A DNA stretch of 55,751 nt, taken from NCBI GenBank assembly GCA_945860945.1, contig CAMASG010000005.1, positions 1-55,751 on the forward strand, in the 5' to 3' direction. The notes beneath the pieces were generated by a model, which was not told the origin of the DNA, ran no database searches, and saw only the letters and a list, made by a program, of their open reading frames with translations. This document shows, in pieces, positions 551 to 53,204 of this stretch; within the stretch, counting starts at the first letter, position 1; each line of letters opens with the position of its first letter. The position numbers and the translations under genes are program-made. This stretch comes from Akkermansia muciniphila. GTDB lineage: Bacteria > Verrucomicrobiota > Verrucomicrobiia > Limisphaerales > SIAT01.

Positions 551-627
551 TGGTGCATCCGCATGGAGTTGAACCATGAACCTTCTGATCCGTAGTCAGA
601 TGCTCTATCCAATTGAGCTACGGATGC
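551..627 (-). tRNA. tRNA-Arg (anticodon ACG)
   Basis: Reverse complement GCATCCGTAGCTCAATTGGATAGAGCATCTGACTACGGATCAGAAGGTTCATGGTTCAACTCCATGCGGATGCACCA, 77 nt, folds as a cloverleaf with ACG anticodon and encoded CCA. Confidence 0.97.
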
Positions 628-2749: not shown

Positions 2750-3964
2750 TCAACGCAGTTGGCGCAACTGACGTCGCGCGAGGTAAGTGTCGAGCCGCGA
2801 GAGAAGGAAACGCGCCCAATACGATTTGATTCGTTCCCAGAAAGTCCATTCGCGCCGCCACGCTTCGAGCCGCACGGCGCGGCTGTGAGGGAGCATCTCC
2901 TCGAAGATTTCACGCGCCTCGGCCGCGAGCGCGGCGTGCGGCAGGCGCAGCAGCAACTCGTAGTTGATGCGCAGACCGCGTTGATCGAGGTTCGCCGATC
3001 CGGCGTACGCGATGCGGTCCACCACGATGAGTTTCGTGTGGAGAATCTGCGGTTGATATTCGTGAATCTCCACGCCCGAGCGGAGCAACAGCGAGTAGAA
3101 AGCGCGGCCGGCGAGTTGGCTTACGGCGACATCGGTCTTGCCCGGTAGAAGGAGACGAACACGTCCGCCTGCACGCGCCACGCGGGCCAGCGCGCGGGCG
3201 AGTCGCCACGTGGGCAGGAAATAAGCGGTAGCGATGTCCACTTGTCGCGCGTGCGCGAGGTCGTTGAGCAACGTGTTGATAATCGGGTTGTGCCGCGGGC
3301 CGGGAGCTTCGGATAGAATCGTAGCTTCGGACGAATGGACAGTCTCGTCGCGCGTGCGTTGCCTCCACCAACGCGCGAGACGCGGATGCTCGTGGTCAGC
3401 GCGCGCGAACATTGTGTCGAAGGTTTTCGCCAGTATCGCGGCGAGTGGCCCGGTCGCGCGCAGTCCGAGGTCACGCCACCCGTTCGCCACGCCGTCCCCG
3501 TCGTATTCCGCGCTGATGTTGAATCCGCCGACGAACGCGGTTGTCTCGTCGCACACGAGTAGTTTGCGATGATCGCGAAAAATCGCGTGCTCGAGCATCA
3601 GCGGATTGAACGAACGGAACTCGCCTCCGGCGCGTGTGAGCGGCGCCCAGTAATCCTCGGGCAATTCGTGCGAACCCCACGCATCGAGCAGCACTTGCAC
3701 GCAGACACCGCGAGCACGCGCTTCGGTCAATGCGTCACGGAAAGCGTCGCCCGGCGTGCCGGCGCGGAAGATGTACATTTCCAACCGCACCGATTGACGT
3801 GCGGCGCGGATGGCTTCAAGCATCGCAGCCAGTCCCGCCGCGCCAGTGCGCAGCCAGTCAAAACGGGTTGGAGTCTCCTGAAGCACACCGGACGTTAGCG
3901 CAGCGGTCGGCTGTTTGGCAAACCTGCCGAAAAATCGTTCCAACCGCACCGCTGCTTCTGGCAT
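2750..3964 (-). CDS. cls: Phospholipase D family protein, cardiolipin synthase ClsB-like (true start may be GTG at 3886)
   Basis: Two HKD motifs (HRKLLVCD, HTKLIVVD) with GGFN and GSAN. Confidence 0.88.
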   Translation of the reverse strand: MPEAAVRLERFFGRFAKQPTAALTSGVLQETPTRFDWLRTGAAGLAAMLEAIRAARQSVRLEMYIFRAGTPGDAFRDALTEARARGVCVQVLLDAWGSHELPEDYWAPLTRAGGEFRSFNPLMLEHAIFRDHRKLLVCDETTAFVGGFNISAEYDGDGVANGWRDLGLRATGPLAAILAKTFDTMFARADHEHPRLARWWRQRTRDETVHSSEATILSEAPGPRHNPIINTLLNDLAHARQVDIATAYFLPTWRLARALARVARAGGRVRLLLPGKTDVAVSQLAGRAFYSLLLRSGVEIHEYQPQILHTKLIVVDRIAYAGSANLDQRGLRINYELLLRLPHAALAAEAREIFEEMLPHSRAVRLEAWRREWTFWERIKSYWARFLLSRLDTYLARRQLRQLR

Positions 3965-28066: not shown

Positions 28067-29404
28067 TTAGCCGCCGAGCGTTGTTGGGTCCGTCACGTCG
28101 CCCTTGTTGAAATCCACGTATTCCTCGGTGAGGTCGCACGTGTACATCACGGCGCTGGCCTTGCCGAGATTCAGATGGATGTGAAGGTCGAACTCCTTCG
28201 CCGCCACGGCCGCACACAAAGTCTTGAACGGCGTCTTCGTCGGCTGGCCTTTCTTCAACGAGTGAACCTGCTTCTTCGAGCCGGGCGCGCTGTAGGCGAT
28301 GTCCACCTTCTCCTCCACGATCGTTGCTGGCGAGTAACCGAGCGCATCGATGATGCGGCCCCAGTTGGGGTCGCCGCCGAACCAGCTCGTCTTCACGAGC
28401 GTGCTGTTGGCCACCGCGCGGGCCGCGGCATCGGCGTCCGCGAAGTTTTTCGCGCCGCTCACGCGCACGGTGATGAAACGCGTCACACCTTCGCCGTCGC
28501 GCACGATCATCTTCGCCAGTTCGAGGCAGACGTGGCTGAGCGCGGCTTGGAACGCGGCGAAGTCTTTGTGTTTCGCCGACGAGATGTTTGCGTTCTCCGC
28601 CAAACCGTTCGCGAGCACGAGCACGGTGTCGTTCGTGCTCATATCGCCATCCACCGTGATGCGATTGAAACTGTGGGCGACGGCTTCTTCTAGTGCGACG
28701 TGCAGCGCCTTTGATTCGATGGCGGCGTCGGTGGTGATGAAGCAAAGCATCGTGGCGTGAAGCCCGCCGTGGGGTGCGGCGGCGGGGCGCGAACCAGTGG
28801 CGCTCATGCCGGGTTGAATCATGCCGGCACCTTTGCAAATGCCGCCGATGCGAACGGTCTTGCCGCCCAGTTTGAATTCAACCGCGACCTGCTTTGGCCG
28901 CGTGTCGCTGGTCATGATCGCCTCGGCGGTCTCGGTGGCGTGCTCGGGCGCGTCGCCCAAAAGTCCGGCGCAATCGAGGATGCCGCTCTTCACGTTCGCC
29001 ATCGGCATGGTCACGCCGATGCGGCCGGTGGAGGCGACGAAGACGTGCTCGGCCGGCAGGTGGAATTGTTTTGCGACGAGGTCGCTCATCGCGAGCGCGT
29101 CCTTCATTCCCTGTTTGCCGGTGCAGGCGTTGGCGTTGCCGGAGTTGACGACGATGGCCTGCGCGATACCGGCCTTCACGCGTTCAGCGCAGACCTTCAC
29201 CGGCGCGGCGCAAATCTGGTTCGTGGTGAACATCCCCGCCACGGTCGCAGGCATCTCGGAGACGATCAGTGCGAGGTCGCGTTTTTTGCCTTTGGCGGAA
29301 CCTTTGCCGGTGCCGAGCCGCTTGATGTCGCAGAAGACGCCGGCGGTGAGGAATCCTTTCGGAGCGACGATGGCTCCGGGGATGGTTTTAAAAACAACGC
29401 TCAT
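28067..29404 (-). CDS. argJ: Ornithine acetyltransferase / N-acetylglutamate synthase
   Basis: NSGNANACTG, STGRIG, KGAGMI, ATML, DMSTND, DGEG, DPNWGR. Confidence 0.96.
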   Translation of the reverse strand: MSVVFKTIPGAIVAPKGFLTAGVFCDIKRLGTGKGSAKGKKRDLALIVSEMPATVAGMFTTNQICAAPVKVCAERVKAGIAQAIVVNSGNANACTGKQGMKDALAMSDLVAKQFHLPAEHVFVASTGRIGVTMPMANVKSGILDCAGLLGDAPEHATETAEAIMTSDTRPKQVAVEFKLGGKTVRIGGICKGAGMIQPGMSATGSRPAAAPHGGLHATMLCFITTDAAIESKALHVALEEAVAHSFNRITVDGDMSTNDTVLVLANGLAENANISSAKHKDFAAFQAALSHVCLELAKMIVRDGEGVTRFITVRVSGAKNFADADAAARAVANSTLVKTSWFGGDPNWGRIIDALGYSPATIVEEKVDIAYSAPGSKKQVHSLKKGQPTKTPFKTLCAAVAAKEFDLHIHLNLGKASAVMYTCDLTEEYVDFNKGDVTDPTTLGG

Positions 29405-29467
29405 TGAAAAATAAATGACTTAGTCGGCGGTAGTGAGAAAAGGAAAATGCGGCGAACCGCGAAGGTT

Positions 29468-29512
29468 TTATTCGCGGCGGAAGGAGTAATTGGCTTTAGC
29501 GTCCAATTGCAT
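29468..29512 (-). CDS. Putative leader peptide MQLDAKANYSFRRE upstream of argJ
   Basis: ATG at 29512 to TAA at 29468, tandem CGC CGC two codons before the stop, lying between a TTGACA hexamer and argJ. Confidence 0.5.
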   Translation of the reverse strand: MQLDAKANYSFRRE

Positions 29513-29524
29513 CGTGCGATGGCT

Positions 29525-29554
29525 ACAGAAACCAGTTTCATGCCACGCTGTCAA
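29525..29554 (-). promoter_or_regulatory. Putative promoter of the argJ operon
   Basis: Consensus -35 TTGACA at 29554-29549. The -10 is weak (TTCTGT at 18 nt spacing). Confidence 0.45.
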
Positions 29555-29578
29555 CTTCGCTTCGTGAACATTTGCGTG

Positions 29579-30505
29579 TCAGCGGCTCACGAGCACCAGC
29601 GCGACCGCGCCGGCCACGGCGACCGCGCCGCCGGCCAGCGCGCGCCGACTCGGGCGTTCCTCGCCCATCCAGATGGCGAAGGGGATCACGATGAGCGGCG
29701 TGATGGCGACGATGGGCAGTACCACGCCGGTGCCTTTGGTGAGCAGCGCCCACTGGTAACAGCTCACGCCGAGCGTCGGGCCGACGAGCGCGTTGAACGC
29801 GAGCCACGGACCGGCCGCGCGCCATCTTTCTTTTGTCGTCAACGTGGGCGTGGTTGAAACGGGTTCTTCTTTTGCGCCAAAGATTTTTTTGCGCTGCAGG
29901 AAAAGCAGGAACAACGCGGTGATGAAAAGTCCGCCGAGAACGCGTTGGTAGGCGGCGGTGATGCCGTCCACCGGTTCGCCTGCGGCTTCGGCGACGGCGT
30001 AAGCTTTGCGGCTGATTACTGCGCCGAGACCTTGACCGAGCCCAGCTAGCGTGCCGAAAGCGATGCCGGCCGTGAGCGTGCGGCGGTCGAGGTGCGCGTT
30101 CTCGCCCGGCGCGAGCGCCATTCCCACGCCGCCGAGAATGGCGGCGCCGCAGGCGATTTCGGCCACGCTGAGGCGGTTGCCGAGCCAGAGCCATTCCGTC
30201 AAAGCCGCGAACGGCGGGGCAAGACAGTTCACCATCATGATCGTTAATCGCGTGCCGAGGCGCGGATAAGTCTGGAAGAGCGCGATGTCGCCGAGGCCGA
30301 ACCCGATAGCGCCGCTGATGAGGAAGATCGCCAACGCGCCGCCGCCCAAGCCGCCGCCCATCGTGTGCGCCCACGCGCCGAGCAAGAGAGTCGCTAGCGT
30401 GAGCCGCCAGAAATTAACCTCCGTGCCGGGCAGCCACTTGACGAGTTGGCGGCCGGAGACGGCGGAGCAGGAGAACAGGAGGGTGGCAAGAACGGCGCCG
30501 AGCAC
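29579..30505 (-). CDS. DMT/EamA family transporter
   Basis: About 10 hydrophobic segments in two EamA-like halves. Confidence 0.85.
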   Translation of the reverse strand: MLGAVLATLLFSCSAVSGRQLVKWLPGTEVNFWRLTLATLLLGAWAHTMGGGLGGGALAIFLISGAIGFGLGDIALFQTYPRLGTRLTIMMVNCLAPPFAALTEWLWLGNRLSVAEIACGAAILGGVGMALAPGENAHLDRRTLTAGIAFGTLAGLGQGLGAVISRKAYAVAEAAGEPVDGITAAYQRVLGGLFITALFLLFLQRKKIFGAKEEPVSTTPTLTTKERWRAAGPWLAFNALVGPTLGVSCYQWALLTKGTGVVLPIVAITPLIVIPFAIWMGEERPSRRALAGGAVAVAGAVALVLVSR

Positions 30506-52802: not shown

Positions 52803-53204
52803 TTAACGCTTGCTGAACTGGAAGCGTTTGCGGGCGCCGGGTTGGCCGTACTTCTTACGCTCTTTCTCGCGGGCATCGCGAGTGAGCAGGCCTTGGGCTT
52901 TGAGAGCGGGGCGCATGGCAGCGTCCACCTCGAGCAGGGCGCGGGAGATGCCGTGGCGCACGGCGCCAGCTTGGCCGGAAGGTCCGCCGCCGGCGACGTT
53001 CACACGGACGTCGAACTTGCCGTTCGATTCGGTGACGGCGAAAGGCTGGATGACCATCGCGCGCTGATCTTCCACGTGGAAGTAGGCGTCGTAGGCGCGG
53101 CCGTTCACGACAATCTTGCCGGAGCCGGTGGCGATGCGCACGCGGGCGACGGCGGTTTTACGCCGGCCGGTGCCGAGGAATTCCTTGATCTTGGTCTTGG
53201 CCAT
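52803..53204 (-). CDS. rpsI: 30S ribosomal protein uS9
   Basis: [32 protein letters not shown]. Confidence 0.98.

Follow-up and report, generated by a model that had tools for sequence, protein, structure and literature searches.

Leader-peptide attenuators of amino-acid operons are exemplified by trpL, hisL, thrL, leuL and pheL, and leaders that work through nascent-peptide arrest by tnaC, speFL and the fungal arginine attenuator peptide. For arg genes, repression by ArgR at ARG boxes is the expected, textbook form of control; other amino-acid operons use leader peptides. In Salmonella, two consecutive Arg codons of orf34, upstream of speF, sense arginine via refolding of the mRNA with the involvement of Rho, as described for that system (PMC6386406). 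Cysteine genes of mycobacteria are preceded by leaderless short ORFs that have Cys clusters at their C-terminal ends (PMC4633059), and a survey of structured RNAs lists an Arg-Leu-Arg upstream ORF before hflX and a carA motif, both unrelated to the locus considered here (PMC8632094). Full-text literature searches, with subscription journals outside their coverage, listed no bacterial case of leader-peptide or upstream-ORF control of arginine biosynthesis, and nothing relevant on ArgR or transcription start sites in Verrucomicrobia. Here we describe a leader of an arginine operon for which the original prediction was an arginine-sensing attenuator.

Promoter and leader of the arg operon

The region comprises the promoter of an operon and its 5' leader of roughly 115 nt. 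The operon has the order argJ-argB-argD-(HhH-GPD glycosylase)-argF and is followed by ispH and a dGTPase gene, all on the minus strand of the window (the whole 55.7-kb stretch of DNA that was analysed). The features referred to below are the following, where L049 and L051 are two related argJ loci:

28067..29404, minus: argJ (445 aa; NCBIfam ArgJ, 1.2e-133), ATG at 29404
29425..29448, minus: pyrimidine-rich, G-poor tract
29449..29460, minus: hairpin B, GCGG-UUCG-CCGC, 4 pairs, using the 3' arm of hairpin A
29457..29477, minus: hairpin A, CCGCGAA-UAAAACC-UUCGCGG; 8 pairs at 29456..29478 with G29478/U29456
29468..29512, minus: 14-codon short ORF MQLDAKANYSFRRE plus TAA, with the ATG at 29512 and the TAA at 29470-29468
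29488..29508, minus: hairpin 1 (AAUUGG / CCAAUU), within the short ORF, in the minimum-energy and centroid folds
29505..29511, minus: TGCAATT, overlapping the start codon of the short ORF; TGCAA(T/A)T is common to the window, L049 and L051
29526..29538, minus: AAACTG-G-TTTCTG, conserved block at the expected -10 position (TG plus a poor hexamer)
29549..29554, minus: TTGACA, -35-like hexamer of the arg operon promoter, read from the sequence
29579..30505, minus: EamA-family transporter gene (Pfam EamA, 2.7e-19), the upstream border of a 174-nt spacer

The argJ start is supported by full-length ArgJ homologues with 78-99% identity, and the closest ArgJ relatives, P0001-P0009, are 82-99% identical. 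The gene names argJ, argB, argD and argF given to the operon beforehand are correct, whereas 'alkA' was assigned to a gene with a weak match to HhH-GPD glycosylases. No second copy of the leader occurs elsewhere in the 55.7-kb window, and a reading as a repeat or mobile element was dropped. A scan of positions 28900-30100 against Rfam 15 (E up to 10) gave nothing relevant; the best match in the leader reached 14.5 bits against a cut-off of 33.3, on the opposite strand.

For comparison, an ArgJ search of genome contigs yielded 80 loci with 67-80% identity, nearly all labelled Verrucomicrobiota, with roughly 500 further relatives outside this set. L041, L065 and L078 were left out of the upstream analyses (short upstream sequence or truncated gene), and the upstream comparison set consisted of 77 loci plus the window. 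The upstream context of argJ varies: argC lies directly upstream in 17 loci and the remaining loci are diverse, with a gene whose product ends in ...MVRLEIDAVK upstream of argJ in at least 21 loci.

Each strand of the window has a single TTGACA. The AAACTG-G-TTTCTG block downstream of it is kept in L049, L051 and L045 at the same distance from TTGACA, and the combined signature TTGACA-N10-AAnnTG(-N-TT) has 4 matches in 716 kb searched on both strands (1.43 Mb), compared with 184 occurrences of plain TTGACA. All four matches lie directly upstream of argJ, in the window, L045, L049 and L051. A perfect TTGACA no more than 160 nt from argJ is found in these four loci and in L004, which has the hexamer without the extended signature. 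The hexamers at the -10 position of the four signature loci (TTTCTG, TTCCGT, TTTGGT and TTCCTA) are not TATAAT-like, and a sigma-70 consensus scan called no promoter at the argJ leader. This is an argJ-specific promoter signature with a perfect -35 element and without a recognisable -10 element. The prs gene, also in the window, has a recognisable TG-n-TACAGT when read by eye. Promoters of the sigma-54, ECF and Bacteroidetes types, as well as TGCAAT as the -10 element, were dropped by eye, their spacings disagreeing among the window, L049 and L051.

Alignment of the window leader with that of L049 gave a score of 47, compared with 18.3 ± 3.1 for shuffled sequences (0 of 1000 as good), and the similarity is carried by GAAGTTGACAG, AAACTG(G)TTTC.GT.GC and TGCAATT. 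On the 3' side of the promoter block the two leaders are barely alignable, with 54 and 239 of 1000 shuffles scoring equally well or better, and in the MAFFT alignments A2 and A3 the hairpin arms are out of register. A blastn search of the leader against the 80 loci matched in position, weakly, in L049 only.

Control by ArgR was assessed with an ARG-box consensus taken as TGAATWWWWATTCA. Scanning this consensus with up to 3 mismatches gave 7 matches in the window, compared with 3.48 ± 1.92 expected; the best has 3 mismatches and lies at 29405-29418, abutting the argJ ATG, and none lies at the promoter. An ARG box at the arg promoter was rejected, as the window holds no convincing site. No ArgR-family protein was matched among the window ORFs scanned (11 in one scan, 38 in another), within these 55.7 kb of the genome.

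The first start codon follows the promoter hexamer at a similar distance in all five loci with a perfect TTGACA. It lies 13 nt downstream in the window (ATG of the short ORF), 7 nt in L049 (GTG) and 9 nt in L051 (ATG), and 11 nt in L045 and 10 nt in L004, where it is the TTG and the ATG, respectively, of argJ itself. In L004 and L045, which are without a leader, the argJ start codon thus occupies the slot held by the short ORF in the window, L049 and L051. Were transcription to start about 7 nt after the -10 position, as is usual, all five loci would be near-leaderless. A Shine-Dalgarno-like tetramer (GGAG, GAGG or AGGA) stands upstream of 4 of 28 genes, with starts taken from the longest ORFs. 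With such predicted spacing, in a genome so poor in Shine-Dalgarno sequences, the short ORF may plausibly be translated.

The short ORF and its hairpin in the window and in relatives

The TTGACA hexamer, the 14-codon ORF, hairpins A and B and the gap of 63 nt between the ORF stop and the argJ ATG were all recovered on the minus strand where the original prediction had placed them. The two Arg codons of MQLDAKANYSFRRE, CGC CGC, lie at 29479-29474, and CGC also accounts for 138 of the 236 Arg codons in the seven neighbouring genes, more than any other codon. When the 174-nt spacer was shuffled 5000 times with its dinucleotides kept, an ATG ORF of 8-40 codons arose in 44%, such an ORF with Arg-Arg in 8.3%, and one with Arg-Arg among its last four codons in 1.7%. 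The short ORF of the window by itself is not remarkable and stays within chance expectation.

Hairpin A overlaps the end of this ORF in such a way that the final three sense codons make up its 5' arm and its loop begins with the stop codon. Both hairpins had been put forward as structural elements, and here they part: hairpin A is stable beyond chance (-11.7 kcal/mol, z -2.74, 0 of 200 shuffles as stable), whereas hairpin B, with its 4 pairs, is weak even when folded without the 5' arm of A (-6.1 kcal/mol, z -2.41, 3 of 200 shuffles as stable), and it is missing from every fold that includes A. The DNA on the 3' side of hairpin B reads ATTTTCCTTTTCTC, which as RNA is AUUUUCCUUUUCUC. The 63-nt gap that separates the ORF stop from argJ comprises 24 T, 20 C, 11 A and 8 G. 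This tract is C-rich and G-poor, as a Rho loading site would be. Similar pyrimidine tracts stand upstream of rplI, dnaB and other genes of this genome, and the tract thus resembles other upstream regions of a Shine-Dalgarno-poor genome and need not be a rut site. It may simply have the usual look of start regions in this genome.

Arrangements of the same kind are found in other leaders. In L051, an ORF runs from an ATG at 3916 to a TGA at 3958-3960 (peptide MVQILNARIVRARS), with its stop 34 nt before argJ; the last Arg codon lies in the 5' arm of a hairpin, GCUCGCU-CCUGA-AGCGGGC, whose loop includes the stop. In L049, the ORF runs from a GTG at 719 to a TAA at 764-766 (peptide VQLCGTEVSVFPQRF), 42 nt before argJ, and a hairpin GCGAUU-UUA-AAUCGC overlaps the Arg codon and the stop. 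The L049 ORF depends on this GTG, located where the transcript is predicted to begin; its first ATG, in another frame, opens only Met-Arg-Asp-stop. Where the window has hairpin 1, L049 has a different hairpin. A further locus without the TTGACA signature, L080, has a frame for VIALKYPAIIR, ending in CGU-UGA within a hairpin of 10-12 pairs, 40 nt before argJ.

Thus, each of the three long leaders with the promoter signature has, close to the promoter, an ORF of 14-15 codons that carries Arg among its final three codons and whose stop falls inside a hairpin loop. The presence of Arg-containing ORFs in orthologous leaders had been named as a check on the attenuator; an ORF with Arg near its end is present in both other long leaders with the signature and perhaps in L080, and the other 74 of the 77 relatives are without the unit. 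Terminal Arg codons number one to three per ORF among the leader-bearing members. In the window, L049 and L051, the TGCAA motif and the stop codon are 41, 44 and 38 nt apart, spacings that differ by multiples of three.

We compared this unit with 4000 dinucleotide shuffles per leader, where a unit was an ORF of 8-20 codons that started in the first 25 nt, had Arg among its final three codons and ended within a hairpin loop. The frequencies among the shuffles were:

Window: ORF alone 0.023; ORF plus hairpin at the stop 0.00075; all criteria 0.00025
L049: ORF alone 0.155; ORF plus hairpin at the stop 0.005; all criteria 0.00225
L051: ORF alone 0.22; ORF plus hairpin at the stop 0.012; all criteria 0.007

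The joint shuffle probability for the two leaders other than that of the window is about 1e-5 before allowing for a post hoc choice, the pattern having been framed after L049 had been seen. Given the ORF and the hairpin, the Arg criterion only about halves the shuffle frequency; it adds little because the hairpin arms are GC-rich and readily give CGN codons. The hairpins of L049 and L051 are no stabler than those of shuffled sequences (z -1.30 and z -1.36).

On this basis we propose, with a probability of about 45%, that these argJ leaders are translated and make up a small family conserved among a few Verrucomicrobiota (Pedosphaerales/Limisphaerales-like genomes). According to this scenario, (i) transcription would start a few bases before the AUG of the short ORF; (ii) ribosomes would load on the short ORF in a leaderless-like manner, as they presumably do on argJ itself in the leaderless relatives; (iii) a ribosome at the last codons would hold the hairpin open, freeing or covering its 3' arm; and (iv) the opened hairpin may alter how the argJ start region, which lacks a Shine-Dalgarno sequence, or Rho sees the RNA. 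Such a leader would most naturally respond to how much charged Arg-tRNA is available at its terminal Arg codons. That the leader actually reads arginine supply is doubtful.

Alternative readings of the leader

The most serious alternative, a realistic one if short of even odds, is that the region is an ordinary promoter with a 5' UTR, in which hairpin A is a plain stem-loop, the ORF arises, with its Arg codons, as a side effect of GC-rich sequence, and the conserved block serves as a promoter that may or may not include an operator bound by a regulatory protein. Several clade-wide counts agree with it. Of a looser pattern (a closed frame that has Arg among its final four codons and ends within a hairpin loop), 1.43 Mb of these sequences hold 326 instances, or 0.23 per kb, and the 15.6 kb upstream of argJ hold 4 where 3.5 are predicted (P 0.47); after shuffling of the 78 upstream regions, 2.56 ± 1.59 loci show this pattern. 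The composite pattern is thus as frequent elsewhere, just as short ORFs are common in shuffles of the spacer. Among the 90 short ORFs starting with ATG in the 78 upstream regions, 10 are Arg-rich (two Arg or Arg-Arg in the last six codons), compared with 11.0 ± 3.3 in shuffled sequences.

The argC leaders were examined for 15 of the 17 argC-argJ loci (L005 is cut by a contig end and L063 is without a clear start), and in none of the 15 does a short ORF upstream of argC carry two Arg codons close to its end. The comparison of argJ and argC upstream regions across Verrucomicrobiota, which had been suggested as a way to confirm the attenuator, therefore reveals no enrichment of Arg-rich short ORFs. 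In 13 of the 15 argC upstream regions, a gene ending in ...(F/Y)SKR, perhaps the gene of ribosomal protein S9 judging by this ending, is followed by a canonical terminator consisting of a GC stem and a T-run. Canonical intrinsic terminators also occur in the genome of the window (after rplI) and in the clade.

An ordinary 5' UTR also agrees with the finding that what the window and L049 significantly share is the promoter block and not the ORF body, that L004 and L045 use the same promoter without a leader, and that the entire 125-136-nt leader of the window is not unusually structured (z -0.55, and z -1.26 in a second fold). It accounts less well for both other long leaders with the signature keeping an ORF of the same length that stops in a loop (about 1e-5 jointly, with the post hoc reservation made above), or for the spacing of the short-ORF start, which matches that of argJ in the leaderless relatives. 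As to an operator, no ARG-box-like site stands out.

The distribution of the unit can be read in either direction. It is present in 3-4 of 78 leaders and missing from 74 of the 77 relatives. In a quick ArgJ tree, L051, L045 and L080 fall into one basal group (SH-aLRT 89 and 92), L049 belongs to the group that follows, and the other 55 have the window as their sister. The leader-bearing loci thus lie in a basal grade of the tree, which would fit an old leader that was lost in most descendants. The unit looks either ancestral and mostly lost, or else coincidental.

Within the proposal of translated leaders, a more specific version, which we regard as unlikely, is that they represent an old ribosome-mediated arginine sensor without an intrinsic terminator in this branch of the Verrucomicrobiota. 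Such a sensor could work by two routes: the freed 3' arm of the hairpin might pair with the argJ start region, or the leader might be shielded from Rho. The first route is permitted by L051 and L080, in which the 3' arm can alternatively pair just before the argJ AUG, with -10.2 kcal/mol compared with -10.9 kcal/mol for the hairpin in L051, and -9.4 kcal/mol (z -3.0) compared with -12.2 kcal/mol in L080. No such pairing was found in the window leader, and the alternative to the hairpin in L049 reaches only -2.6 kcal/mol. Arginine specificity, which the attenuator presupposed, gains no positive support from the codons either: Arg accounts for 6 of 43 codons in the three ORFs (2 of 14 in the window), compared with about 8% expected from the composition of the window leader, and is not clearly over-represented. 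The peptides MQLDAKANYSFRRE, VQLCGTEVSVFPQRF and MVQILNARIVRARS are unalike, sharing only Gln-Leu/Ile after the start, and a conserved arrest-peptide sequence, as in nascent-peptide arrest leaders, is absent across them. Near argJ and argC, as shown by the counts above, Arg-rich short ORFs are not enriched in the clade.

The mechanism originally put forward, in which a ribosome dwelling on CGC-CGC either toggles the leader between hairpins A and B, with B and its U-rich tail as a terminator, or masks the rut-like tract, is improbable. Its appeal rests on the adjacent Arg codons inside the 5' arm of A, on the arm shared by A and B, on the rarity of a terminal-four Arg-Arg among the spacer shuffles, and on Arg within the last three codons of the L049 and L051 ORFs; two consecutive Arg codons also have a precedent in Salmonella orf34 upstream of speF (PMC6386406). 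However, hairpin B is far weaker than A and never stands beside it in the folds. The terminator scan of the minus strand called none in the leader, hairpin B included, although the genome and the clade use canonical terminators, and an intrinsic terminator or a U-run abutting the hairpin is absent from the leaders of the window, L049, L051 and L080. L049 is also without a B-like alternative, and the Arg requirement, as noted, contributes little. The sign of the switch is a further obstacle. The footprint of a ribosome extends about 15 nt to the 3' side of the P site, and a ribosome stalled at CGC-CGC would therefore cover the 5' arm and loop of A, leaving the 3' arm free for B. If B then formed and terminated transcription, arginine starvation would shut the operon down, the reverse of the response expected for a biosynthetic operon. 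A trp-type terminator/antiterminator attenuator is not supported. What endures of the arginine-sensing attenuator is a leader unit, putatively translated, that recurs in L049 and L051; the A/B switch is not supported, and the Arg specificity is doubtful.

We consider it very improbable that the leader is a structured RNA working without translation, by binding a protein or a ligand, with its start-codon region pairing with a downstream GCAY so as to close a domain of two hairpins. A closing helix of this kind is possible in all three leaders, as GAUGC/GCAUU in the window, GUGCA/UGCAU in L049 and GGUGC/GCACC in L051, and one of its positions varies as A-U, G-U and G-C. The helix appears in the minimum-energy folds of L049 and L051, yet it has just 5 pairs and is not part of the window's own minimum-energy fold. 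The z-scores of the three long leaders (-1.26, -0.85 and -0.17) and the lack of an Rfam match argue in the same direction, conservation is too low for a ligand pocket, and the spacing from the motif to the stop in multiples of three would be needless for an element acting as RNA only.

That hairpin A is the terminator of the upstream EamA transporter gene, for which its strand, its position about 100 nt past the EamA stop and a T-rich tract within 10 nt might speak, is hardly credible, as it lies downstream of the conserved argJ promoter block, its stem is without an abutting U-run and is not called by the scan, and L049 and L051 keep the unit with other upstream genes or none.

Comparison with known leaders

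If an Arg-codon-reading leader before argJ were confirmed, it would add arginine to the amino acids under attenuation, in a phylum with almost no regulatory genetics and in a genome that seems to put start codons at transcript ends. Without arginine sensing, too, the promoter signature and the ORF in the argJ-start slot bear on transcription and translation initiation in these bacteria.

As in ArgR-controlled operons, a conserved DNA block overlaps the promoter; in contrast to them, there is no convincing ARG box and no ArgR-family protein within the 55.7-kb window. The locus shares with trpL- and hisL-type attenuators a short 5' ORF on a biosynthetic operon, codons for the operon's own amino acid and hairpins over the end of the ORF. 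It differs in having no terminator before the first structural gene and an A/B overlap of the wrong sign, in that its regulatory codons number only two and lie inside a hairpin arm rather than upstream of it, and in that the short ORF is present in just 3-4 of 78 related leaders.

Like Salmonella orf34 and E. coli speFL, the window has two consecutive Arg codons in a short upstream ORF; orf34 has a conserved domain and controls ornithine decarboxylase rather than arginine synthesis (PMC6386406). The peptides of the argJ leaders, unlike orf34, are not conserved. The mycobacterial Cys ORFs are conserved genus-wide in place and sequence and have support from ribosome profiling (PMC4633059), whereas the argJ ORF has a transcript start that we infer, one to three Arg codons and a narrow distribution. 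Both nevertheless combine a short ORF at the 5' end with C-terminal codons for the cognate amino acid and a matching operon downstream.

Open reading frames, tRNA genes and a tandem repeat in the window and two related loci

Besides the 14-codon short ORF ahead of argJ, the following features were recorded in the window and in two of the related loci from the ArgJ scan of genome contigs (L009 and L049).

Window 29447–29857, plus strand: 136-codon ATG ORF lying antisense to both the argJ leader and the 3' end of the EamA transporter gene
Window 551–627, minus strand: tRNA-Arg gene, anticodon ACG (ARAGORN)
Window 52948–53042, plus strand: unusual 'tRNA-???' of 95 nt whose anticodon has four bases (ARAGORN)
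L009, 54 to 21 nt before argJ: 10-codon ORF MSPLIRYPRA, with two Arg codons
L049, 1–164, at the contig end: tandem repeat, one frame of which encodes ...SSPLPDHPKTVWMV...

The antisense ORF is probably a GC-rich artefact. By the usual wobble rules, the tRNA-Arg(ACG) decodes CGC, the Arg codon that is present twice in the short ORF of the window. The start of the L009 ORF overlaps the stop of the upstream gene as ATGA, and no hairpin was found at its own stop. In the quick ArgJ tree, L049 has L009 as its nearest relative. In L049, the 800-nt stretch upstream of argJ, which includes the tandem repeat, contained no convincing gene.

Promoters and inverted repeats before argJ

The argJ promoters of L004, L045, L049, L051 and the window (29526–29554) combine a perfect TTGACA with an extended -10 TG, and their hexamers (TTCCGT, TTTCTG, TTTGGT and TTCCTA) lack the usual A at position 2.

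Two kinds of inverted repeat were recognised by eye before argJ in other loci. In ten of them (L001, L021, L022, L029, L033, L035, L048, L055, L057 and L064), TTTCGTG/CACGAAA-like units form long inverted repeats in the 60–150 nt before argJ, taking up the whole spacer that separates it from the upstream gene, and in L016, L026, L032, L046 and L067 the gene is preceded by a different long hairpin, AACAAAGAAAC... / ...GTTCCTTTGTT. Visual inspection further showed that both kinds end in TTCAAT, 7–12 nt ahead of the argJ ATG, which looks like the -10 element of a near-leaderless argJ mRNA.

The record titles of several contigs (L001, L006, L012, L026 and others) name Bifidobacteriaceae, Methylomirabilota, Limnocylindrales, Acidobacteriota or other groups, and the ArgJ of these contigs is placed inside the Verrucomicrobiota tree; the records have probably been mislabelled or mis-binned.

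Terminators upstream of argC

In 13 loci (L003, L008, L014, L038, L043, L050, L060, L061, L062, L072, L075, L076 and L077), argC is preceded by a gene whose product ends in (F/Y)SKR, presumably resembling ribosomal protein S9, followed by a canonical terminator. The gap between this terminator and the argC start is as small as 0–10 nt in L050, L060 and L077. There, argC expression may depend on read-through of the upstream terminator.
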